This document shows positions 1 through 9,944 of a stretch of DNA of 9,944 bases, in pieces. The stretch comes from a virus. Taxonomy: Duplodnaviria > Heunggongvirae > Uroviricota > Caudoviricetes. The stretch lies in IMG/VR virus record IMGVR_UViG_2740892431_000015; one strand, given 5' to 3'. The notes below the pieces were generated by a model that searched no databases, was not told the origin of the DNA, and saw only the letters and a list, made by a program, of their open reading frames with translations. Position numbers and translations under genes: made by a program. The stretch's first letter is position 1, and each line of letters starts with the position of its first letter.

Positions 1-27
1 CTAAATCAGTAAGTTGGCAGCATCACC
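1..27 (-). mobile_element. IS1 terminal inverted repeat (IRL-type end), 27-bp fragment; element body lies outside the window to the left
   Basis: Bases 1-27 CTAAATCAGTAAGTTGGCAGCATCACC are the exact reverse complement of the IS1 left terminus GGTGATGCTGCCAACTTACTGATTTAG as I remember it; perfect 27-bp inverted match with 9918-9944. Confidence 0.85.
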
Positions 28-36
28 GGGTGATTA

Positions 37-2142
37 ATGGCTAAAGCATGGAAAGATGTTATCGCCTCTCCACAGTATCAGGCGTTAGCACCAGAACAAA
101 AAGCGCAGGCTCAGGAGCAATACTTCAATGAAGTCGTGGCCCCGCAAGCCGGAGAAAGTGTAGCGCAGGCTAAGCAGGCTTTTTATGCTGCCTATCCACT
201 ACCATCAACGAATGAAATAGACCGATCCCAATCAGCAACTCAAAATATTCAACATACATCATCTGATAATTCTCTTGCGTCAGGGTATGCAAAGTTAGCT
301 ACTCAGCAAAGAGAGGGGCTTGAGCGTTCAGCAGAACAGGGAGCCAGTCTTGGGGCTGCGATGCGCGATGCTATAACAGGCGAAAGCCGAATGACTCCAG
401 AGATGGAGAGACTGCAAAATGTCGACCTTGCCCCAGAGTTAACCTCACTCAGCATGGGTGCTCTAAAAGCTCGATGGTCTCAACTTTTCGGCTCTGACGC
501 ATCTCAGGAAAAGATTCTTCAGAGCATGGGAGCGAAATTAAGGCAGGATGAGAAGGGTAACACTATCGTTTCCCTGCCATCCGGTGATTATGCTCTGAAC
601 AAGCCGGGTTTATCGCCGCAAGACGTGGCATCGTTTCTGGCTAATGCGCTGGCGTTTACACCAGCGGGCAGGGCTGGAACGGTGCTTGGTGCCATAGGAA
701 AATCAGCAGCTACAGATTTAGCACTACAGGGAGCCACCAGCCTTGCTGGTGGAGAAGATATTGATCCGTTACAAACGGTAATTTCTGCTGGCATTGGTGG
801 TATTGGTAAGGGGCTGGAAAATACAGCGAGTGCGGTTTCGAGGGCTGTTCGTGGTGATATGTCGCCTGAAGCAAAGGCTGCTGTCAACTTTGCATCGGAA
901 AGAAATCTGCCGTTAATGACCAGTGACATGCTGAAAGATAAAACCTTTATGCAGAGTCAGGCTCAGACATTAGGCGAAAGAGTTCCTTTTTTTGGAACCG
1001 GTAAGAATCGGCTGAATCAACAACAAGCACGAGAAAATTTAGTCAGAACATTTAGCGATGGTCTGGGTGGCATTTCTGATAAACAGCTTTATGAATCTGC
1101 GACTAAAGGGCAACAAAAATTCATTGAGGCAGCAGGAAAGCGATATAACCGCATAATTGACGCTATGGGGGATACCCCTGTCGATCTCTCAAACACGGTA
1201 AAAGCTATCGACAATCAGATTGCCGTGTTAAGCCGCCCGGGCAAATCTCAGGATAGAGCCGCGGTAAAAGTCTTGCAGCAATTTAAAGACGATATCACCA
1301 GCGGACCAAATGACCTGCGTCTGGCGAGGGAAAACAGAACCGATCTTCGAAAGCGATTTATGGCGTCATCTGACACTGTTGATAAAGATACGCTCCAGAA
1401 AGCCAGCGATATTATCTACAAGGCATATACGGCGGATATGAAAAAAGCCGTAGCCAAAAATCTTGGAGCAGACGAAGCCATTAATATGGCAAGGGTTGAT
1501 CGGTCATGGTCTAAATTCAATGACATGATGGGAAGAACGCGCGTTCAAAAGGCAATAGCCAGCGGTAAGGCCACGCCTGAGGATGTAACAAAACTCGTTT
1601 TTAGCCAAAGCCCATCAGAACGTTCTCAGCTTTACAGGCTTCTGGATGACAATGGTAGGCAAAACGCACGAGCAGCCATAGTTCAGAATGCTGTAGATAA
1701 GGCGACTGATCCGTCTGGAAATATCAGTGTTGAGAAGTTTATTAATGCGTTACACCGGAACAGGAAGCAATCAGCAACTTTCTTTAAAGGCGTACATGGA
1801 AAGGAACTGGACGGCGTTATTAAATACCTCAACGATACAAGACACGCGGCAAAAGCGAACGTTCAAAACTTAAATGGTCAGCAGCTTTATGGATTGTTAG
1901 TTGGTGGTGGCATCATAAACGCAGCAGTATTAGCGGGGATGCTAAAAACGGCTGCGTTTGTTGTTCCTGCTGCTGGTGCCGTAGGCGGAGCAGCGAAGGC
2001 ATACGAAAGCCCTGTTATACGAAATGCCTTGTTACGTCTGGCAAATACGCCAAAAGGTAGCACAGCATATGACAGAGCGATCAGTACGGTCACACAATCG
2101 CTCACCAGAGTCGCACAGGCATCACAAAAAGAAGCTCAATAA
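37..2142 (+). CDS. Large hypothetical protein (701 aa), Ala/Gln/Lys-rich and probably helical, with internal Gly-rich segment and C-terminal glycine-zipper-like hydrophobic hairpin; candidate membrane-active protein (bacteriocin-like toxin, or phage tape-measure/ejection protein)
   Basis: Long uninterrupted ORF in typical-GC DNA; ATG at 37 preceded by GGGTGA; in-frame TGA at 31-33 means the frame cannot extend upstream. Hydrophobic Gly/Ala-rich stretch LLVGGGIINAAVLAGMLKTAAFVVPAAGAVGGAAKAY near residues 623-662, followed by a ~40-aa polar tail. Antisense ORFs inside it are shadows. Confidence 0.8.
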   Translation: MAKAWKDVIASPQYQALAPEQKAQAQEQYFNEVVAPQAGESVAQAKQAFYAAYPLPSTNEIDRSQSATQNIQHTSSDNSLASGYAKLATQQREGLERSAEQGASLGAAMRDAITGESRMTPEMERLQNVDLAPELTSLSMGALKARWSQLFGSDASQEKILQSMGAKLRQDEKGNTIVSLPSGDYALNKPGLSPQDVASFLANALAFTPAGRAGTVLGAIGKSAATDLALQGATSLAGGEDIDPLQTVISAGIGGIGKGLENTASAVSRAVRGDMSPEAKAAVNFASERNLPLMTSDMLKDKTFMQSQAQTLGERVPFFGTGKNRLNQQQARENLVRTFSDGLGGISDKQLYESATKGQQKFIEAAGKRYNRIIDAMGDTPVDLSNTVKAIDNQIAVLSRPGKSQDRAAVKVLQQFKDDITSGPNDLRLARENRTDLRKRFMASSDTVDKDTLQKASDIIYKAYTADMKKAVAKNLGADEAINMARVDRSWSKFNDMMGRTRVQKAIASGKATPEDVTKLVFSQSPSERSQLYRLLDDNGRQNARAAIVQNAVDKATDPSGNISVEKFINALHRNRKQSATFFKGVHGKELDGVIKYLNDTRHAAKANVQNLNGQQLYGLLVGGGIINAAVLAGMLKTAAFVVPAAGAVGGAAKAYESPVIRNALLRLANTPKGSTAYDRAISTVTQSLTRVAQASQKEAQ

Positions 2143-2161
2143 CTGGTTAGCCATGGATGGC

Positions 2162-2776
2162 TTAGATATCTCTGCTGTCTCCATTAGGAAATAAAAGATA
2201 ATATGGATTTGCCTTTCTTGCTCTCCTTGCTTCACCCGGATACCTGTTAGTCAGTAGCTTGCATAATGAGCAGAGAACAACACTCAAGAAAATTCCGAAT
2301 GAGAAGATCAATATCTCACCAAAAATCAATGGCGATATTAAATTTTCAGGATTTAATGATAAGTCAATGTTAAAAACATATTGAGCAATACCAGTAAGTA
2401 TCAATAATATAATCCCTATGGAATACATTGCTGTTTCCCAAACATCAGACAGTCTATTTTTGAATTGTTCGCTGGAGTAGTAGTTTGTTATAAAGTCAGA
2501 AAAATCACTCTCATATGCATCATCTTTAGGTGATGTTAGAAATCCTCTGTCTCTCCATACCTTCTCCCAATTAGTCGATTCTTTTTTTAAGGAAAAATAA
2601 ATATGTATTCCCAAAAGGATAGCCAAAATTGGTGTTAGCTCTAAAAAATAGAATGTTATGGAATAAATAATACTGCCATGTTCAAACTCATCTGGGACTA
2701 TCATGTATGCACAAAAATAAATTGAAAAGTACACCATGCAGATAGTTAGCAATTCTTTAGTATCTTTTCTGCTCAC
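2162..2776 (-). CDS. Low-GC integral membrane protein, about four predicted TM helices (204 aa); candidate immunity or exclusion protein
   Basis: GTG start at 2776 with AGGGGG Shine-Dalgarno about 6 nt upstream on the minus strand; four hydrophobic stretches (LLTICMVYFSIYFCAYMIV, IIYSITFYFLELTPILAILLGIHIYF, AMYSIGIILLILTGIAQYVF, ISPLIFGEILIFSFGIFLSVVLCSLCKLL); strongly AT-rich compared with the flanking genes; convergent with the 701-aa ORF, stops 19 bp apart. Confidence 0.7.
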   Translation of the reverse strand: MSRKDTKELLTICMVYFSIYFCAYMIVPDEFEHGSIIYSITFYFLELTPILAILLGIHIYFSLKKESTNWEKVWRDRGFLTSPKDDAYESDFSDFITNYYSSEQFKNRLSDVWETAMYSIGIILLILTGIAQYVFNIDLSLNPENLISPLIFGEILIFSFGIFLSVVLCSLCKLLTNRYPGEARRARKANPYYLLFPNGDSRDI

Positions 2777-2885
2777 ACCAACCCCCTTTAGCGTTGTTTA
2801 GAATGGCAATCATCATATATCCAAGACATGGCATTTGGTACATAGCTTGGGTCGGGATTTCAAGTCCGCTCCCAGTTGATGGGGC

Positions 2886-3040
2886 CGTTACAGTACGCGC
2901 ATATCCGCTTTATGTGAAACAGGAAGATTTTTCTGATATCACTGCCACAGCAAAACACCAATTTCGTGACCAGTACGCGCGCGAGGGGTATCAGTTGCAA
3001 AATTTTTTGCAACTGCGTCCGACCAGTACGCACACGATGG
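2886..3040 (+). repeat. Three degenerate same-orientation copies of a CAGTACGCGCGCGA-type (CG)n-palindrome element
   Basis: cagtacgcgcatatcc at 2891-2906, gaccagtacgcgcgcgagggg at 2968-2988, gaccagtacgcacacgatgg at 3021-3040, in a ~520-bp stretch with no convincing gene. Confidence 0.6.
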
Positions 3041-3230
3041 CGGGGGATACCATAAAACTGTTCTCTACATGAGACAGAGTGGTGGTGATGTGTTGATTAT
3101 CGGCGTATATGCGCACAGGACGCGCTATGACGATGTTTTATGCGGGTACACCAATCACATGTATCTGGTGTGATAAATCGCGTTACATGACCTCTCATGT
3201 TGTGCTGGTGGTTATCACGACTTTCTGAAT

Positions 3231-3274
3231 CTGGCCTTTGCCTGATATTTTGCGACAAGTACGCGCGCGTAGCA
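3231..3274 (+). repeat. Copy of a ~45-bp repeat ending in GACAAGTACGCGCGCGTAGCA (contains perfect palindrome TACGCGCGCGTA)
   Basis: ctggcctttgcctgatattttgcgacaagtacgcgcgcgtagca; about 80 percent identical to the copy at 4608-4652; sits just beyond the 3' end of the minus-strand 73-aa gene. Confidence 0.65.
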
Positions 3275-3297
3275 TCGACAGCATACACATTGGATAT

Positions 3298-3519
3298 TCA
3301 TTTTGTGACCAATGCGATAAGTAGCGGGATAAGAATTGATAAAATCAACAGGCCGATGATCCACTTTTGATTTTCACTGGCCTTATCTCTATTTTCATCA
3401 ATCTTATCAATAATTCGACGCTCCAATCCGTGCATATCACCGCGAATGGCAATCATCTCATTGCGAACATCAGGGAAGTGGTTGGCTTGATGTTCAATGT
3501 GTGGCGTTCTGCCTTTCAT
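3298..3519 (-). CDS. Small tail-anchored membrane protein (73 aa): ~50-aa charged N-terminal region plus one C-terminal TM helix
   Basis: ATG at 3519 with GAGGA Shine-Dalgarno 6 nt upstream on the minus strand; C-terminal WIIGLLILSILIPLLIALV hydrophobic helix; 79 bp downstream of the RHH gene on the same strand, so probably co-transcribed. Confidence 0.55.
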   Translation of the reverse strand: MKGRTPHIEHQANHFPDVRNEMIAIRGDMHGLERRIIDKIDENRDKASENQKWIIGLLILSILIPLLIALVTK

Positions 3520-3598
3520 ATCTGATCCTCACCTATCGTCACTACCTGCTGGTGTATAAAGGTATTGGCCCAAGCAACTTTCCAATGGGCACTCATGT

Positions 3599-4054
3599 TT
3601 ATACGCTGACCTTACAATCAATCACTGCTTTTAGCTTTTCAGCATTGCTTCCCTGACGCTTCCACGCGCTGTAAATATCTTTATCCCACGCTTTACCAGC
3701 TTTTGTTTGATAGCCTGCTTCATTGATCCGTTCAGCTATCACACGCCCATTATCAAATCCCTGTTGGATGGTATCGGCAATGATCTTTATAACTGCCGTT
3801 TCGTTATATGGTTTTGGTGGGATGTTCGGCTTTCCGGCAATAAGCGACGCAGCGGCTTTTTCCATGCGCTCCACCAGCCCAAGCATTCGTGAATCAATAG
3901 ACTTTTCCGGCTGCCCCAGCTTCATGCGAATCGCATCAACAAGCCAGGAGGTTTTATCTCCTCCAGAAGCGAGAACAGACCGATTAAACTCATCCTGCAA
4001 TTCAGATGGGATGCGGAACGCGACCAGATTAGATTTGCTCATTGCAAAGACCAT
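3599..4054 (-). CDS. Ribbon-helix-helix (CopG/Arc/MetJ-like) DNA-binding protein with ~100-aa C-terminal extension (151 aa)
   Basis: N-terminus LVAFRIPSELQDEFNRSVLASGGDKTSWLVDAIRMKL fits the RHH pattern of beta-strand, helix, G-x-T/S turn, helix (my pattern recognition, not a search). First gene of a two-gene minus-strand unit; palindromic operator and iterons immediately upstream. Start may be the second ATG at 4042. Confidence 0.65.
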   Translation of the reverse strand: MVFAMSKSNLVAFRIPSELQDEFNRSVLASGGDKTSWLVDAIRMKLGQPEKSIDSRMLGLVERMEKAAASLIAGKPNIPPKPYNETAVIKIIADTIQQGFDNGRVIAERINEAGYQTKAGKAWDKDIYSAWKRQGSNAEKLKAVIDCKVSV

Positions 4055-4086
4055 ATCAGTGAGTAATATCCATACAGTATACCACT

Positions 4087-4103
4087 GTATAACACTGTTA
4101 TAC
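4087..4103. promoter_or_regulatory. Perfect 17-bp palindrome GTATAACACTGTTATAC, candidate operator in the promoter region of the minus-strand RHH operon
   Basis: Read directly: arms gtataaca / tgttatac around central C at 4095; lies 33-49 bp upstream of the minus-strand start codon at 4054. Confidence 0.4.
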
Positions 4104-4149
4104 GCTCAAATATCAGCCAGAAAATAACGGACCAATCACAAATCTATCG

Positions 4150-4268
4150 CTGTGTTGTTGGTTCAGAGCTGGGCTGTGTTGGTTCAAAATGAGTTGATGT
4201 TGGTTCAATATTTCAGAAAAAACACAATAAAAACAACAATCTTTACAAATTGAACCAACTGAACCAAC
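4150..4268. promoter_or_regulatory. Iteron-like array: three direct TGTTGGTTCA repeats at exact 21-bp spacing plus two tandem inverted TGAACCAAC copies, between divergent genes
   Basis: TGTTGGTTCA at 4156-4165, 4177-4186, 4198-4207; TGAACCAAC at 4251-4259 and 4260-4268; TATAAT at 4281-4286 just before the ATG at 4300. Confidence 0.55.
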
Positions 4269-4299
4269 TATGCTTATCTATATAATCTGAGAGGCAGAA

Positions 4300-4581
4300 A
4301 TGATAAGGGACAGGAAAGCTGAAGAGCTGGAGTCAAAAGGGCTATACCGGAGAGCTGCCGCACGATGGATGGAAGTCATGCTGTTATGCACCGAGGACGA
4401 TGATCGGGAATGGATAAAGCGCCGCCGTGAAACGTGTCTGGAGAACGTGAAGCGCCCGCCCGTGAAGGTTGAGGAATTTGGCGACCTGCATAAAGCTGTT
4501 ACCGAAACGCAACACCGCATGGGGATAGCGCAACCGAACGGTAACGCCTTCCGGTTAAATGGCGGCAAGAGGCAAAGGTAG
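4300..4581 (+). CDS. PerC-family-like transcriptional activator (93 aa)
   Basis: GAGAGG Shine-Dalgarno at 4289-4294; N-terminus MIRDRKAEELESKGLYRRAAARW resembles the PerC/Pch small-activator signature as I remember it; size fits (~90 aa). Family call is from memory, not a search. Confidence 0.65.
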   Translation: MIRDRKAEELESKGLYRRAAARWMEVMLLCTEDDDREWIKRRRETCLENVKRPPVKVEEFGDLHKAVTETQHRMGIAQPNGNAFRLNGGKRQR

Positions 4582-4585
4582 ACCA

Positions 4586-4607
4586 CCAGAGGGAAATCAT
4601 CCTCTGG
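4586..4607 (+). terminator. Possible weak intrinsic terminator hairpin after the PerC-like gene
   Basis: ccagagg (4586-4592) pairs with cctctgg (4601-4607), 8-nt loop; downstream T-content is only moderate. Confidence 0.25.
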
Positions 4608-4652
4608 CTGGCGGTTTCTGGTATTTCGGGACAAGTACGCGCGCGCGTAGCA
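4608..4652 (+). repeat. Second copy of the ~45-bp repeat ending in GACAAGTACGCGCGCGCGTAGCA (contains palindrome TACGCGCGCGCGTA)
   Basis: ctggcggtttctggtatttcgggacaagtacgcgcgcgcgtagca; same orientation as the 3231-3274 copy; lies just 3' of the PerC-like gene. Confidence 0.65.
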
Positions 4653-4878
4653 CCCAATCGGTGAGGAAATAGCGGCGACCTGAATGGTCAAAATCACAAC
4701 GCAGCTATCCCCGTAAGCAGCGCTTAACGGAATAGCAGTAACCTGAATCCAGTGGGGAGGGGGTAGTCAAATCTCTACAGCCCTGACTATCCGGGACTGC
4801 CCGCCCCATCGTTTTTTTATACCCGCGAAAAATGAAATTTAATCCGGGCGTGTTTCATTCTTCCAGAGGGTATGACGT

Positions 4879-5064
4879 ATGACACCACGCGAAATAGCCT
4901 TATTGACCATCGCCAAACTTGAGCACGGAGGCCACCAGCTTACACAGGCAGATCAACGGGAGATAGAACGATCAGTTAATGCCGATATAGCCCGGCGCGA
5001 CAGGTTCCGCGAAATGATGCGAGCACCTGCCTACCAGTGGAAGAAGCCAGCGCCGCGCAGGTAG
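4879..5064 (+). CDS. Small hypothetical protein (61 aa)
   Basis: ATG at 4879 with AGAGGG Shine-Dalgarno 8 nt upstream; same strand and immediately upstream of the pRiA4b-ORF3-like gene; no recognisable family. Confidence 0.4.
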   Translation: MTPREIALLTIAKLEHGGHQLTQADQREIERSVNADIARRDRFREMMRAPAYQWKKPAPRR

Positions 5065-5184
5065 ATATGGGATTATTCCACATGTAACTTATGCGTATTA
5101 AGCAAATTTCCTTTATTCACCTTTACAGAATTGTGAGTACGTCAGTATCGTTATCCTTCCGATTCGCATTTATTCAGGATTTGC

Positions 5185-5727
5185 ATGTACCAGCTAAAGA
5201 TAACCATCCGAGACAGCAAACCACCTATATGGCGGCGTGTGCTGGTTCCAGAGCAAATCCCCTTTAGTAAACTTCATGCCGTGATCCAGTTAGCTTTTGG
5301 CTGGAATGACGAACACCTGTATATGTTCGAGAAAGGGCGTAAAGGTGATCCAGGTAGCGAGTATCGCGTATGGGGTGAGGATGAAAGCATGGGTAACGCG
5401 GCAATCACGCCACTATGGGCGGCGCTCCAGAATGAGGGTGACAAGCTGGTTTACACGTATGACTTTGGCGACTGGTGGGATTGCGTCATTGTGCTGGAGA
5501 AGCAAACACACGATACGAGTAATCAGCCCATTAGCTGCCTGCGTGGGAAAGGCACCACCCCGGCGGAAAACTCAGGCGGCTTGCATGGTTACAATGAATT
5601 GCTATTACAGGCCAGAGAGTCTGATAATCCTGAGCAGGCCGAGATCCACAATTTCCTGATGCTGGATATTGAACGCCGGGTTTACGACCTGAGCCGCATC
5701 AACGACAGATTGCAGGCTATTAACTGA
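5185..5727 (+). CDS. pRiA4b ORF-3-like family protein (180 aa), the family of the IS1096 'TnpR'-like protein; function unknown
   Basis: N-terminus YQLKITIRDSKPPIWRRVLVPEQIPFSKLHAVIQLAFGWNDEHLYMF matches the conserved IWRR...LH.VIQ..(F/M)GW..HLY.F signature I recall for this family. Confidence 0.8.
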   Translation: MYQLKITIRDSKPPIWRRVLVPEQIPFSKLHAVIQLAFGWNDEHLYMFEKGRKGDPGSEYRVWGEDESMGNAAITPLWAALQNEGDKLVYTYDFGDWWDCVIVLEKQTHDTSNQPISCLRGKGTTPAENSGGLHGYNELLLQARESDNPEQAEIHNFLMLDIERRVYDLSRINDRLQAIN

Positions 5728-6079
5728 CCCGCATGTATTCACCTGATATTGCGTTGTCAGCGCCGCCAGTATCGCGCATAACAGCGCACTGACCGGGTAA
5801 ACCGTAGCGCACGACCGTTGCGTTAGTATCACCGCCGCGCCGTATCTGGCGCGATTCATACACTGTCACCCGCTCAAGCAGTCCACCAGCAACCATGCTT
5901 TCCAGTGTGCGCCGGGTTGATTCGAGCTGGTGACGCTTATCGAACGACACCATGCCATGAAGCAGGTAGGCCACACCCGACACATCGAACGGCGGCGCAC
6001 CAATCTCACCAGTCACCCATTCGAGGTTATCCGGTTCAAAGTAGCTAAGTATCTCTTTTTTGCGGCTGGTCATTCTCAT
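5720..6079 (-). CDS. Hypothetical protein (119 aa), possibly a winged-helix DNA-binding protein
   Basis: ATG at 6079 with AAGGAA ~11 nt upstream on the minus strand; imperfect 32-bp palindrome upstream; 3' end overlaps the convergent 5185-5727 gene by 8 bp. GC-rich region with long ORFs in several frames, so coding status is uncertain. Confidence 0.5.
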   Translation of the reverse strand: MRMTSRKKEILSYFEPDNLEWVTGEIGAPPFDVSGVAYLLHGMVSFDKRHQLESTRRTLESMVAGGLLERVTVYESRQIRRGGDTNATVVRYGLPGQCAVMRDTGGADNAISGEYMRVS

Positions 6080-6092
6080 GGCTGGCTGATTC

Positions 6093-6124
6093 CTTATTGT
6101 GGGATAGCACTATCATACAATAAG
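6093..6124. promoter_or_regulatory. Compound imperfect palindrome (CTTATTGT ... GATAG-CA-CTATC ... ACAATAAG), candidate operator upstream of the 119-aa minus-strand gene
   Basis: Read directly: 8-bp outer arms at 6093-6100 and 6117-6124 with a nested GATAG/CTATC inner palindrome; 26 of 32 positions symmetric. Confidence 0.4.
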
Positions 6125-6901
6125 TGGGTTAAAGGGAGAGCGTTACCGCCTGATATGCTGTATGAATAACAACCAAATTTCAGGGGCGGAAAAAGATATG
6201 GGGGTACTTTTGGGGGTATCTATAAAAAATGAACAATAAAAAAGGCAACAAAAACAAAGCTTATCGCCTATGTGTATTGTTCCTATTATCGCACAATCAA
6301 GAAAATCAATAACTTAGCTTAACTTCTCTAAGAAATTGTATCTTCTGTTATCACTTACAAACGCCTATACGTTGTTATGGGCTTTGGTAGTGTAACACGT
6401 ATGGGCGAGTAGTTCCCAGGCTCAACCTCGTAACAAGTTCCTTTGAAGCTGGAAGACGTGCCACCGTCTCTAAACCTTCTACCAAAACTCTTAGCAAGAT
6501 GTTCCACACCTGGCGCGGTGTCCAATGATGCTACACGTCGTGAGACGTTGCAGAGGATAAACAGGCTAAATGATGGGAAGAGTTTTAAGTGCAATAGTGG
6601 ATCAAAGCCCACCTCTTCAAAACCTAACTTGATCGGGAAAGAATCAAGCTCTAGCACGGTTTCGTCCACCGGAGTACAACGGGTGCCTGATAAGAGAAGA
6701 ACTGCTAAGACTTCATAGCTTTTGTGAAAAAGCCCTTTTAGTGGATACGCCTACGGCGCTTATTTTTTGGGGTAGCCCATCAAAGGCGCTTTATGGCTCC
6801 TATTGTCTTGAAAATGTATCTTTACTTGTATTGTGTTTTATGCGTAGTCTCCCTGTGTAGTATGTAACTTGTTAATTTTCATATGAATACAGAGGCACAC
6901 G

Positions 6902-7060
6902 ATGAAAAACATTGCAGCTATCAAACGTAATAACCGCAAGATTCACGCTCGTAAGTTCCTGTCTACGCCAGAAGGAAAAGCCTGGCTAGAGCGTAAACAG
7001 AGAGAGAACGAAGAAAGAAAACTCCTTAATGAGTTGAAATGGCTTAGAGAGGATTTCTGA
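6902..7060 (+). CDS. Small basic protein (52 aa), below the ORF-track threshold: MKNIAAIKRNNRKIHARKFLSTPEGKAWLERKQRENEERKLLNELKWLREDF
   Basis: ATG at 6902 with AGAGG Shine-Dalgarno at 6891-6895 (6-nt spacer); TGA at 7058-7060; sits alone in AT-rich DNA that is otherwise noncoding. Confidence 0.45.
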   Translation: MKNIAAIKRNNRKIHARKFLSTPEGKAWLERKQRENEERKLLNELKWLREDF

Positions 7061-7224
7061 AAATCTCCAGAACGCAACAGGACGCATTCTAACGCTATTT
7101 TCATTGCTTGGTATAGGGATGTATAGGTGATGTGTGTTTAATGCGTCTGTGCGCTTGTTTTGTGCCTTATTTTGCATTTTCATAATGCAGAAGAGAACAC
7201 GGAAAACCTTAAAATTAATTATTG

Positions 7225-7262
7225 GGGTATTTAAGGGTATTTTCAGGTGATTTAAGGGTATT
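7225..7262 (+). repeat. GGGTATT(T/A) direct repeats, including two 13-bp copies ATTTAAGGGTATT spaced 20 bp apart
   Basis: gggtattt at 7225-7232 and 7235-7242, gggtatta at 7256-7263; related GGGGGTA pair at 6199-6220. Confidence 0.5.
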
Positions 7263-7330
7263 AAACTTGATTTAATTGATTAAAATATAAACAGATAGTT
7301 GTGTATCTTATTGATTTATAAGGTTATTTT

Positions 7331-7390
7331 TAAATAAAGGTAAATAAAAAATAAATAGCCATAAATAGCTATAAATACATCTAAATACCT
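7331..7390 (+). repeat. Six tandem 10-bp units of (A/T)TAAATA-type, 10-bp helical phasing (probable intrinsically curved DNA)
   Basis: taaataaagg, taaataaaaa, ataaatagcc, ataaatagct, ataaatacat, ctaaatacct occupying consecutive 10-bp blocks 7331-7390. Confidence 0.55.
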
Positions 7391-7872
7391 ATATCCCTTC
7401 CCTTATGGCTAGATTGCGAGAGGTGCTTAACGCGATTTTCAGCGCCCCCCGATCTGGAAAATCCAGAATCCCCAAATATCAGCAAGGAATTTTCTTGCGT
7501 AATCAACATCGTTTTTACCTATTAAATCATTACACAGAAAGCCTTTCTGTAATGTCTCTCACTAAACTTTCACTAAACACGAGAATGATCGGTTTTATGT
7601 CGGATCAGATGCTAGAAACAGCACCACGTCTCACAAGGACTGTAAGCGATGAAACCAGTGTTTATGCGGGTGCAGGTCAAAATATAGGCCAAAATCAATT
7701 TAACATAATAAACGTAATATGCACTAAGGAACACATAGAACGCCTTGAGTTGATGTATCAGGGGAAAAAAGTGATGGATTTTTTACGTAGGAGCACGAGA
7801 GGGCTTCTGTTGACTTTTGTATGCTATGAAACATAATTAAAGGTTTTTTTGTTTTTATTGTGTGATGTAGTG

Positions 7873-7900
7873 GATTACACAGGGGAATAGATTAAATGGT
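7873..7900 (+). repeat. Iteron copy GATTACACAGGGGAATAGATTAAATGG (ATTACACAGG family)
   Basis: Shares the ATTACACAGGG-AATA...GATTA-TGG pattern with the tandem copies at 8224-8287. Confidence 0.45.
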
Positions 7901-8223
7901 GTTCTGTTTATACAGGTTTATTTGTTAGATCAACAATTTGGCATTTCTAAACAGATGTTTGAACGTTGCCAAATGTCTTGACAACACAAGAAAAGGGCTT
8001 GCTATGCCACGCATTACACGAAATAAGGCTGTAAAAACAAAATAAATTTTAAAATTTGCACAAACGAGAAAACTCGTTAAGAAACAAGCAGAACAATTTT
8101 TAGCCAACAATTTCTGATGGTGCTCTGTAGGCCGCACTACACAAGGATTTGCGAAAGTGATGTAAAAGTGAAGAAAGTAAGAATTGCACTTTTAAGCTAC
8201 TTTTCATTGAATTTTTAGTATGG

Positions 8224-8287
8224 AATTACACAGGAATAAGTTAGGGATATTCTATGATTTACACAGGGAATATAGGGGATTATGGCA
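8224..8287 (+). repeat. Tandem pair of ~32-bp imperfect direct repeats (ATTACACAGG family iterons)
   Basis: aattacacaggaataagttagggatattctatg (8224-8256) and atttacacagggaatataggggattatggcac (8256-8287); further single cores at 8013-8020, 8136-8146, 8303-8311 and 9405-9415. Confidence 0.55.
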
Positions 8288-8459
8288 CACACATAGAAAG
8301 GCATTACACAGAGTGAGTGCTATGTGATGATTGGTAGTAACGGTAGGTCATAGTGAGCTAGGGGGTAGGTCACTGTGAACTACAATAAGACTATTAATAA
8401 AACTATATTAGATTATTAATTAGATCATAATAATAATATTCTTTATATCTATATATATG

Positions 8460-8880
8460 ATCTTTTGCCTTCCGGCGTTAGCTTCACTCTCTGGCAAGCA
8501 GCCTTACTCCGCTACCTTTCGGGCTTCGTGGCTGGCCCGTTCCGCTCACACCGAAAGCAAAGCGTTACTTTCTTCGTGTAACTTCGTTGGCGGTAACGCC
8601 CACGAAGAAATCTATTGCGCTGTGCGCAGTAAGAGTAATCACCTAACCAATCATACTGATTGCTTATGTGTTAACTCTCTCTAACTCTTAATTACCCTCC
8701 TACATTTAATAACTCTGTTATTCTCTGTAGTTGTGTAATTACTCGAAGAGAGAGCGGCTAAAGCTCAATTACACTCTGCTTTCCTCGTGTAATTTCACTA
8801 AGCCTCAATACAATTTCACTTCCTACATTCTGTAGTCGTGTAATTGTTTTCGGTGGAAAAGCCAGAGGCGACACCGAAAG
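8460..8880 (+). other. GC-enriched structured island inside AT-rich DNA; candidate structured ncRNA or single-strand initiation/origin hairpins
   Basis: Hairpin 8516-8557 (ctttcgg / ccgaaag); hairpin 8570-8609 (9-bp stem ttcttcgtg / cacgaagaa enclosing GGCG-GTAA-CGCC, a GNRA tetraloop); hairpin 8848-8879 (tttcggtg / caccgaaa); 10-mer ACACCGAAAG repeated at 8548-8557 and 8871-8880. The 75-aa ORF here has no ribosome-binding site. Confidence 0.3.
8721..8845 (+). repeat. Two direct repeats TTCT(CT)GTAGT(T/C)GTGTAATT carrying the iteron core in reverse orientation
   Basis: 8721-8740 and 8828-8845; further reverse-orientation cores CGTGTAA(C/T) at 8575-8582 and 8785-8793. Confidence 0.45.
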
Positions 8881-8888
8881 AGAATTCT

Positions 8889-8950
8889 GATCTTATTAAT
8901 CTTATCTATCTTAGTTAATCTTCTTACTTATCTTACTTACTTTATCTACT
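8889..8950 (+). repeat. Degenerate 9-bp tandem repeat (ATCTTAnnn) in a G-depleted pyrimidine-rich tract
   Basis: TCTTA at 8890, 8899, 8908, 8921, 8930 (mostly exact 9-bp spacing); only one G between 8889 and 8965 on the top strand. Confidence 0.5.
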
Positions 8951-9481
8951 TTATTATTAATAATAGCTTTATAAGCTCTCTGTGTAGCTCTCTGACGCAA
9001 GAAACAGCATTCAGGAAGGGAATCACCTTAGAAAAGGTGTTCTTTGCGTCATAATGTGTTTTATGAAGGATTCAGAGGTGTTTCATAACAGGAATGTATA
9101 GAGAATACTTTAGGTAATTAAAAATAAGGGGTCTAAATGCTTCTCTAACAGCATTAAGCAGGGTAGGGAATGGAAACGCATTGCCTACATATAATAAACT
9201 CACTACAGGGCTTTACAGGGCGTTTTATAAAGTGACTCTCTGTTTTATATCTACAATCACCTTTTCATATACCTAACAAATACAAAATAAGCCCCTTAAA
9301 TAAGCCTCTGGCGAGCTAAACAGACATTACATAAGAGAATGTATTGCTTTTATCAAAACTTCGTTAGAACGCGTTTTAGAGCGTTTTAGCGGATAATGAA
9401 GAATAGCACTACACAGAAGAGCACGAATTGCTAAGACAAATTATAACATGCTGAAAAAGATCGATTTTTTCGAAAAGGGTA

Positions 9482-9510
9482 TTGACAAATGTTTCTTTAT
9501 ATGTAATAAT
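9482..9510 (+). promoter_or_regulatory. Sigma70-type promoter candidate with extended -10 (TTGACA, 17-bp spacer, TGtAATAAT)
   Basis: Consensus -35 TTGACA at 9482-9487; TG at 9503-9504 and AATAAT at 9505-9510; would give a ~105-nt leader to the ATG at 9624. Confidence 0.45.
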
Positions 9511-9623
9511 AGGTATTAGAGGGACAGAAAAACATTCTTCTCTAAATAATCAAAATCAATGCACTTTGAAGCCGTCAGGCTTGCAAGGTGTTTTATTTCT
9601 TTTAACTGAATAAGGAGTTTTTT

Positions 9624-9812
9624 ATGAAATGGTTTACACCGGAGCACGTCGTAAAGGCATTTAAAAAAGGTGAGCTTACACGCCACCAAATAGTAATGAA
9701 TCGTAATATGGCAAGGAGTCGAGGTTATCCAGAGCGAGCAGCTTGCTTCAATGAAGCACTCAAGATTATTGATGAACTAAGAAAAAATGAAAAAGAATCT
9801 GAAACAGAGTAA
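9624..9812 (+). CDS. Small hypothetical protein (62 aa)
   Basis: Strong AAGGAG Shine-Dalgarno at 9612-9617 with 6-nt spacer; candidate promoter upstream; followed 19 bp later by a second gene with its own ribosome-binding site. Confidence 0.6.
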   Translation: MKWFTPEHVVKAFKKGELTRHQIVMNRNMARSRGYPERAACFNEALKIIDELRKNEKESETE

Positions 9813-9831
9813 AGAAGAGAAGGAGAAAACT

Positions 9832-9939
9832 ATGAGCGAAGCTACAGAAAAGAAAAGACAACCACGCACTTGCTTTCATATTCCTGATGAAGTATTTCAG
9901 GTGTTGTTTAAAGAAGCGGTGATGCTGCCAACTTACTGA
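9832..9939 (+). pseudogene. Gene truncated by IS1 insertion: native N-terminal ~28 codons (MSEATEKKRQPRTCFHIPDEVFQVLFKEA) run into the IS1 end and stop at TGA 9937-9939
   Basis: ATG at 9832 with AGGAG at 9821-9825; the reading frame continues into the IS1 terminal repeat (from 9918), so the native C-terminus is missing. Confidence 0.5.
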
Positions 9940-9944
9940 TTTAG
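9918..9944 (+). mobile_element. IS1 terminal inverted repeat (IRL-type end), 27-bp fragment; element body lies outside the window to the right
   Basis: GGTGATGCTGCCAACTTACTGATTTAG matches the IS1 left terminus as I remember it and is the exact inverse of bases 1-27. Confidence 0.85.

Follow-up and report, generated by a model that had tools for sequence, protein, structure and literature searches.

The DNA analysed here (the window, 9,944 nucleotides) is a complete short-read contig of unique E. coli DNA that lies between two multicopy IS1 copies of the IS1A type. It belongs to a degraded prophage or satellite-like island integrated at the E. coli thrW tRNA gene, the position of CP4-6 in K-12. 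We consider it very probable that the window is resident island DNA that received its two IS1 copies in place, at separate times. The interior of the window is colinear with the resident island in AF3, which has the left IS1 only, and in 2014C-3057, which has neither copy, and this colinearity with genomes short of one or both copies argues for successive insertions in place. The finding is ordinary IS1 biology. The features of the window are collected in Table 1.

Table 1. Features of the 9,944-nucleotide window
Feature	Position	Strand	Basis or remark
Left IS1A IRL tip, 27 bp	1..27	-	Equals L001 6001-6027; element lies left of the window, transposase reads leftward
Left IS1 9-bp target-site duplication, GGGTGATTA	28..36	+	Split duplication in MSB1_4I
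P22 gp16-family DNA ejection (transfer) protein, 701 aa, intact	37..2142	+	ORF list
Island cargo block	2162..6079		ORF list, annotation, Pfam
Cargo ORFs of 204, 73, 151 and 119 aa	within 2162..6079	-	
PerC-family regulator	4300-4581	+	Pfam PerC, E = 3.7e-30
ORF of 61 aa	within 2162..6079, listed between PerC and PRiA4_ORF3	+	
PRiA4_ORF3 protein	5185-5727	+	Pfam, E = 1.1e-42
AT-rich, gene-poor stretch	6100..9812	+	GC 34-44%; three short genes called on L004
Short gene in AT-rich stretch, 52 aa			
Short gene in AT-rich stretch, 143 aa	7405-7836		
Short gene in AT-rich stretch, 62 aa	9624-9812		
5' part of 56-aa hypothetical gene (28 codons + 2 nt)	9832..9917	+	Translation; cut by right IS1
Right IS1 predicted 9-bp target site, TAAAGAAGC	9909..9917	+	Predicted from intact site ...TTTAAAGAAGC/CAGAAG
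Right IS1 IRL tip, 27 bp	9918..9944	+	Equals IS1A bases 1-27; element lies right of the window, reads rightward

The first 27 bases of the window are the exact reverse complement of the last 27 (9918-9944). This 27-mer occurs twice in the window with no mismatches (chance expectation 0.00 in 200 shuffles) and is identical to bases 1-27 of a complete 768-bp IS1A in E. coli AF3 (L001 5260-6027). In the AF3 element, the transposase gene begins 56 nt inside the window-facing end and IRR (GGTAATGACTCC...) is found at the end away from the window, which identifies the window end as IRL. Both ends of the window are IRL, and since a single IS1 cannot provide IRL twice, there are two separate IS1 copies, inverted and with IRL facing inward. 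The preliminary description had reported both the perfect 27-bp inverted ends of IRL type and the inverted pair of separate copies, and both points stand when compared with the AF3 termini. Within the window IS1 is represented by the 27-bp tips, and the IS1 bodies are deduced from relatives; in a sister contig (L004) the identity with IS1 lengthens to 53/53 bases at both ends. A longer inverted repeat of 37 nt (89%) was considered and rejected, as positions 28-37 and 9908-9917 are unrelated target DNA according to the uninterrupted sites. A circular molecule with one IS1 was also rejected; it would show one IRL and one IRR end.

The make-up of the island is a P4-like integrase, regulator and primase module combined with P22-like 14-7-20-16 ejection genes and a capsid gene. 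In related complete genomes the integrase lies by tRNA-Thr after proBA and is followed by an AlpA-like HTH protein, ash and a TOPRIM-DUF927 primase, then by DUF2824, the gp20-like and gp16-like ejection genes, PerC and the capsid gene. When compared with the P4-like/P22-like mosaic cryptic prophage at thrW, the island shares the integrase-tRNA-Thr, primase and ejection-gene layout. Only four complete genomes cover at least 80% of the window; the three that were inspected all carry it in a thrW-region island, and none of the four has both IS1 copies together. No plasmid covers at least 80% of the window, the best reaching 34%. Comparison with genomes in which the locus is intact, as the preliminary description had proposed, found both target sites uninterrupted: AF3 (99.83% identity to window positions 1-9917) carries the left IS1 and has an intact right site, and in 2014C-3057 gp20 overlaps gp16 and the downstream gene order is that of the window.

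The left junction, present in 3 of 5,426 complete E. coli genomes, adjoins a complete 768-bp IS1A with IRR and the insA/insAB' frameshift gene in AF3, MSB1_4I and SCU-172. In IS-free relatives the ATG of the gp16-family gene overlaps the stop codon of the gp20-like gene (TAATG), so that the left IS1 breaks an operon where two genes meet. The uninterrupted site reads ...CACTATG/GGGTGATTAATGG. In MSB1_4I the bases of positions 28-36, read on the other strand as TAATCACCC, adjoin IRL of one IS1 and the gp20-side IRR of its partner IS1, and this duplication matches the uninterrupted site in 2014C-3057. The gp20-like ejection gene upstream ends in the same nine bases, which supply its final codons G D stop, and its coding sequence beside the left IS1 is full-length, with the stop changed from TAA to TAG. 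The 701-aa ORF begins at 37 and IS1 ends at 27, and the spacing of 9 bp given in the preliminary description is therefore correct. The suggestion that IS1 displaces the promoter of this ORF is not supported, since what was split is the gp20/gp16 overlap and the 9 bp are the target-site duplication. We find a single promoter-like site at the left junction; its strand is the one that runs into IS1, in agreement with an IS1 promoter that overlaps IRL (PMC12428005). Because this site in IRL reads into IS1, gp16 would be cut off from upstream transcription, as judged from its sequence context.

Relatives carry rearrangements at the left copy. In MSB1_4I a 24-kb inversion lies between the left IS1 and another, inverted IS1; the two members of each duplication, TAATCACCC and CGTTTATTC, sit at different IS1 copies, and this proves both the left 9-bp duplication and the inversion. 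SCU-172 has the same 24-kb inversion, as judged from coordinates only. AF3 shows a 10,683-bp deletion beside the IRR end of the left copy, stopping inside an HTH regulator gene. As the left copy has a 9-bp duplication of its own, it represents a solo insertion. Both AF3 and MSB1_4I contain at least four IS1A copies within 50 kb, and such neighbouring copies account for the contig breaks at the window ends.

At the other end, IS1 cuts a gene after about 28 codons, as had been noted previously, and AF3 has the intact 56-aa gene (L001 15844-16014: MSEATEKKRQPRTCFHIPDEVFQVLFKEARSKRITVTDYILDMLKREAETLSNKSK), which the insertion probably inactivates. The cut gene reads on into IS1 up to a stop at 9937-9939, forming a 35-aa fusion ORF that exact look-up located on three other contigs. 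The right junction is present on three further draft contigs from different samples, one NCBI draft and two Logan runs (GCA_030005905.1, ERR4035871 and SRR30150937), at 0-2 substitutions from the window. Each of these three contigs ends 28 or 53 nt into IS1 (53/53 bases in L004, 28/28 in L005 and L006). The junction occurs in 0 of 5,426 complete E. coli genomes and in no entry of a one-genome-per-species collection. The right IS1 presumably has a body past 53 bp and a target-site duplication, and its reciprocal junction is predicted to read GTTGGAGTCATTACC + TAAAGAAGC + CAGAAGTAAACG. A protein search for this IRR junction, with the intact 56-aa product as query, yielded nothing but variants that were full-length or truncated in other ways, exact look-up in the protein collection found none of seven predicted fusion or partial ORFs (9-bp and 10-bp duplications), and a DNA pattern allowing 7-11-bp duplications gave no match in metagenome and genome contigs, among which E. 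coli isolates are barely sampled. These outcomes carry no information and do not speak against the insertion, because gene calling easily misses a 35-aa ORF that starts with TTG and the DNA collections are poor in E. coli isolates. Of the target-site duplications that the preliminary description had wished to see, the left one was thus found via MSB1_4I, and the right reciprocal copy was sought and not recovered.

In the order of events that we favour, the left copy is the older, an ordinary insertion that generated the 9-bp duplication exactly at the gp20-like/gp16-like overlap, and in relatives it later joined in the 24-kb inversion of MSB1_4I and the 10.7-kb adjacent deletion of AF3. The right copy is younger and limited to a small clone, and it split the 56-aa gene after codon 28. 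Most likely it came from one of the many genomic IS1A copies by ordinary copy-in insertion and took the inverted orientation by chance. Solo insertions of IS1 (IS1A) in E. coli have the same terminus, the same 768-bp insAB' element, a 9-bp duplication, adjacent deletion and inversion; the window differs from them only in its lineage-specific sites, the gp20/gp16 overlap and the 56-aa gene of the thrW island. The locus thus provides an example of how IS1 remodels one E. coli island, by insertion followed by an inversion of 24 kb, the loss of 10.7 kb and the gain of a second copy in inverted orientation. With two inverted copies in place, the 9.9 kb may now be invertible by recombination between them.

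Possible, though in our estimate rather unlikely, is a one-step origin in which the left IS1 transposed replicatively in trans into the 56-aa gene 9.9 kb away, so that the second, inverted copy and a flip of the segment arose together. Detailed accounts of replicative transposition in trans exist for IS26 and Tn4401, and it has been suggested to occur in the IS1 family too. Its geometry fits exactly, as an inverted original and a new copy always bracket inverted DNA (PMC4471558). Working through the strand transfer, we find that both inner ends have to be the end that first faced the segment, here IRL, and IRL is observed at both, an arrangement that simple insertion gives only half of the times. 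In 'cis', the same reaction yields an adjacent deletion such as the 10.7-kb one at the left copy in AF3. IS1 was replicative in 210 of the 210 intrachromosomal events tested in one study (PMC12428005), although donor retention there is no proof of a Shapiro-type intramolecular reaction. The window resembles an in-trans product in having an inverted, identical pair around a segment and one junction in common with single-copy genomes, but the diagnostic features, an inverted duplication and a flipped segment, are unreadable from a contig that independent insertion yields as well. The four junction sequences would be the same after an independent inverted insertion, whether or not recombination followed, and do not discriminate, and the genome offers many other IS1A donors. 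The window's own genome is known up to the 27-bp tips; the outer flanks of both IS1 copies, the way round in which the segment lies and whether the right IS1 is complete all fall beyond them; more generally, the same IS end at both edges of a short-read contig tells neither segment orientation nor transposon status.

We regard as very unlikely the further proposal that the right IS1 arose by duplicative inversion and that the window is a newborn, active IS1 composite transposon or invertible cassette which could spread to plasmids. If this were true, the cargo of the cassette would comprise the PerC regulator, the gp16-family ejection protein and other island genes.

Any two correctly oriented IS1 ends can in principle be used by the transposase, and the 9.9 kb, whose outer ends would both be IRR, could theoretically serve as a composite transposon; nothing indicates past movement. 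That a true composite transposon similar to Tn1681 brought the 9.9 kb here, or moved it, as a unit appears highly improbable to us. Inverted IS1 ends do enclose a discrete segment, and Tn1681, which is flanked by inverted IS1 repeats (PMC7554612), offers a precedent. Two IS copies surround the window segment, as seen at the level of the junctions, but we find neither a one-piece insertion that is foreign to its flanks and has a single outer duplication, nor a second genomic or plasmid location of the unit. The interior and both continuations are colinear with the resident island of AF3 and 2014C-3057, the duplication at the left copy marks a solo insertion, and the IS1-bounded unit is present on no plasmid and at no second chromosomal site searched. 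Tn1681, a heat-stable enterotoxin transposon, moves, whereas the window segment is resident island DNA found at no second location, and the likeness between the two, inverted IS1 copies around a cargo, covers the orientation of the copies only. Of the Tn1681-like arrangement put forward in the preliminary description the inverted IS1 pair thus remains and the composite transposon does not, as the interior is colinear with an IS-free island; its proposal that the whole 9.9 kb could be mobilised as a unit finds no counterpart in the relatives, plasmids or second sites.

An assembly artefact, in which IS1 tips were misjoined to the contig or are solo IR remnants without an element, can practically be dismissed: the ends fall precisely on contig edges, the four assemblies all break off at a fixed distance into IS1 and the body of the right IS1 is visible for 53 bp only, but the left junction comes with a full IS1 in three closed genomes, the right junction falls on the same base in contigs from different assemblers and samples with no shared homology to make a chimera, and at a real multicopy element contigs are expected to break off at a fixed k-mer distance inside the repeat. 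The contig ends are repeat collapse by the assembler, and both junctions are real. The worry that the 27-bp ends might be contig edges was justified insofar as they are such edges; these stem from a real repeat, not from a chimera.

Between the two IS1 copies, the product of the 701-aa gene matches phrog_770, 'DNA transfer protein' (E = 3.6e-159), and is annotated as 'P22-gp16 family' in AF3; PF26808 is precomputed for the identical L004 product. An Rfam scan of the window returned no match, and the 143-aa and 62-aa ORFs had none in Pfam or PHROG. The 204-aa ORF gave a weak SieA-like PHROG match alone (E = 4.4e-4). An annotation should name the product of the 701-aa gene an ejection protein of the P22 gp16 family, orphaned from the rest of its operon, and should mark the right-end 35-aa ORF as a fusion artefact of the 56-aa gene.

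The window opens with a 27-base sequence (CTAAATCAGTAAGTTGGCAGCATCACC) that recurs, as an exact reverse complement, in its closing 27 bases, and a 27-mer search allowing ≤3 mismatches returned these two ends as its sole matches (chance expectation 0.00). Comparison with the complete genome of E. coli AF3 (NZ_OZ547117) identifies the 27-mer as the left terminus (IRL) of IS1. AF3 contains a 768-bp element whose final 27 bases equal the left end of the window, whose far end opens with GGTAATGACTCCAACTTATTGATAG (IRR), and whose gene, annotated as 'IS1-like element IS1A family transposase, programmed frameshift', starts 56 nt inside the window-facing end. As described, IS1 measures 768 bp, its terminal repeats are imperfect, and a weak promoter overlaps IRL (PMC12428005). 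The inverted IRL copies proposed for both window ends in a preliminary description are thus borne out (27/27 exact, none elsewhere in the window), and its placement of a 701-aa ORF 9 bp past the left end and of a right-hand gene cut after ∼28 codons is correct. As both inner ends are IRL, two IS1 elements are required, and a single-IS1 circle is excluded.

Among 5,426 complete E. coli genomes, three (AF3, MSB1_4I, and SCU-172) cover the whole of a left-junction query made of 27 nt from IS1 and 58 nt of unique DNA. The junction adjoins a full 768-bp IS1A in AF3 and MSB1_4I, where we read the sequence, and is assigned to SCU-172 by match alone. The right junction is present in 0 of the 5,426 genomes. 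At this junction of the window, the cut gene runs on into IS1 to give a 35-aa fusion ORF (MSEATEKKRQPRTCFHIPDEVFQVLFKEAVMLPTY), which exact look-up located on three further contigs: a 10,010-bp draft contig of GCA_030005905.1 and the Logan contigs ERR4035871 and SRR30150937. They differ from the window by 0–2 substitutions and a few indels and therefore come from a small clone, not from the same assembly. All three end at a fixed distance inside IS1, the draft contig 53 nt in at both ends (all 53 matching IS1) and the Logan contigs 28 nt in; the body of the right IS1 would continue beyond these 53 bp. The contigs break because at least four IS1A copies lie within 50 kb of the locus, as seen in AF3 and MSB1_4I, and the window almost certainly represents an entire contig delimited by a multicopy repeat that the assembly collapsed. 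Of the contig-edge artefact foreseen as a possible refutation, only the edges hold, and these are due to real IS1, not to a chimera. Further copies in this IS1A-rich lineage interrupt ecpC, an oxidoreductase gene, and a lacA-like acetyltransferase gene within 50 kb of thrW.

Positions of the features discussed, in the window and in related loci (L001, AF3; L002, MSB1_4I; L003, an IS-free relative; L008 and L009, stretches with IS1A copies within 50 kb of thrW)
Feature	Sequence	Coordinates	Remark
IRL of left IS1	window	1–27	
IRL of right IS1	window	9918–9944	
IS1A element	L001	5260–6027	768 bp
IS2	L002	14694–16025	at window position 8674
Motif GACAAGTACGCGCGCG, + strand	window	2968–2983	extends to 2956–2983
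Motif, second copy, + strand	window	3254–3269	extends to 3242–3269
Motif, third copy, + strand	window	4630–4645	extends to 4618–4645
Segment replaced by Abi-family gene in L003	window	3279–3651	
9-nt tandem repeat TGAACCAAC	window	4251–4269	just upstream of PerC gene
AT-rich region	window	∼6100–9600	∼3.5 kb, 34–44% GC
Further IS1A copies	L008	7943–8710, 11445–12212	
Further IS1A copies	L009	12512–13279, 15984–16751, 33671–34438	

The IS-free island reads ...CACTATG/GGGTGATTAATGG, with the left IS1 at the slash and TAA, the gp20 stop, overlapping the gp16 ATG. The 9 bp ahead of the 701-aa ORF are the target site of this copy. In MSB1_4I, the left IS1 has TAATCACCC (the reverse complement of GGGTGATTA) beside IRL and CGTTTATTC beside IRR, and a second IS1A, 24 kb off and in opposite orientation, has CGTTTATTC beside IRL and TAATCACCC beside IRR, the latter followed by the gp20 gene and everything in the island from there leftward to thrW. 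Two 9-bp duplications, each divided between the inverted copies, reveal an inversion between them, prove that the 9 bp are the left IS1 target site, and show that a conventional insertion, duplicating 9 bp, first placed this copy here. By coordinates, SCU-172 is arranged alike. The duplication left the gp20 coding sequence complete, with an annotated end 1 nt into IS1. The break made by the insertion in the 14-7-20-16 ejection operon therefore falls between genes, which would orphan gp16 from upstream transcription. The idea that the insertion displaced a dedicated promoter of the 701-aa gene does not hold; the single promoter-like site at this junction falls within IRL and reads into IS1, in agreement with the described IS1 promoter (PMC12428005). 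In AF3 the IRL junction is unchanged; on the other side, a 10,683-bp deletion that adjoins IS1 and lacks a duplication has brought IRR up against DNA from within the int-proximal HTH regulator gene. Another AF3 IS1, at an oxidoreductase/LysR site, has a 31-bp deletion adjoining its IRL.

AF3 matches window 1–9917 with 99.83% identity and one substitution, and continues without interruption through an intact right target site (...TTTAAAGAAGC/CAGAAG). Since AF3 has the left IS1 and this intact site, the right IS1 arrived later, in a sublineage already having the left copy. It cuts, and presumably inactivates, the gene for a 56-aa hypothetical protein (WP_001570986), with TAAAGAAGC as the predicted target duplication. 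MSB1_4I and SCU-172 are not ancestors of this lineage, because an IS2 at window position 8674 removed the target; both lack all DNA from there to the IS2 site of AF3, including HTH and capsid genes, a pattern suggestive of an IS2-associated deletion inside this island. The reciprocal IRR junction was not recovered by protein search, fusion-ORF look-ups, or DNA pattern scans in collections that barely sample E. coli isolates. The cluster around the 56-aa protein (P0004, P0009, P0010, P0012, P0017) contains other truncated or extended forms from public assemblies (42–76 aa, their C-termini altered) and a single member of 399 aa, suggesting that the gene is often disrupted or fused.

For the origin of the pair we lean toward an independent event, in which a copy of any genomic IS1A, of which there are many possible donors, would have inserted in inverted orientation to form the right IS1. 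A less probable origin is that the left copy transposed replicatively 'in trans' within the molecule, which leaves a second, inverted copy and reverses the DNA between the two (PMC4471558). When the strand transfers are worked through, the segment-facing end (IRL) afterwards faces the segment from both sides, so that the orientation is guaranteed, whereas it is a coin-flip under independent insertion. Replicative IS1 movement accounted for 210/210 intrachromosomal events in one study (PMC12428005), and in AF3 the same left copy has already given rise to an adjacent deletion, the 'cis' outcome. The four junction sequences are identical under both routes, and once both copies are in place, recombination between them can turn the segment round, as in MSB1_4I at larger scale. 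A composite transposon that moved as a unit is rejected: the segment belongs to the resident island and is colinear with genomes without one or both IS1 copies, and the left copy has its own duplication. Searches of plasmids and complete genomes did not find the 9.9-kb unit on any plasmid or at a second site. The composite-like arrangement noted initially is real, an inverted IS1 pair resembling that flanking Tn1681 (PMC7554612), but its interpretation is only partly supported, and the biology is ordinary. The most fitting label is a pseudo-composite made up of two solo IS1 insertions, which is common and well understood. The 9.9 kb should be invertible and, in principle, mobilizable through the two IRR outer ends.

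The window interior is part of an island integrated beside tRNA-Thr (thrW), downstream of proBA. In the IS-free strain 2014C-3057 the order is thrW, integrase, a small HTH regulator, antA/antB, DUF4222, ash, and several unknowns, then a TOPRIM-DUF927 primase, DUF2824, a hypothetical, a gp20-like 'phage DNA ejection protein', and the 701-aa gene, followed by the rest of the window genes, an HTH protein, small ORFs, and the major capsid protein. The 701-aa gene encodes an ejection protein of the P22 gp16 family. Also among the cargo are a PerC-family regulator and a PRiA4_ORF3 protein, and the remaining window ORFs have no informative Pfam or PHROG match. Gene calls in the AT-rich, gene-poor region are limited to three short ORFs of 52, 143, and 62 aa. 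Several short tandem repeats of AT-rich sequence also occur there, Rfam gave no match, and the region may represent coding sequence that has decayed. Recombinase or IS3 genes occupy it in one genome and in a plasmid relative.

A 16-nt motif occurs in three copies (≤1 mismatch; chance expectation 0.01) that extend to ∼28 nt and are non-coding, with stops in all frames around them. The second lies just before the divergence point of L003, where an Abi-family gene replaces window DNA, and may be a boundary for module exchange. The PerC start is displaced by 14 and 23 nt in AF3 and MSB1_4I, respectively, and the sole difference between the window and the GCA_030005905.1 contig is 14 nt of indels; the 9-nt tandem repeat upstream of PerC is a likely site of this length variation.
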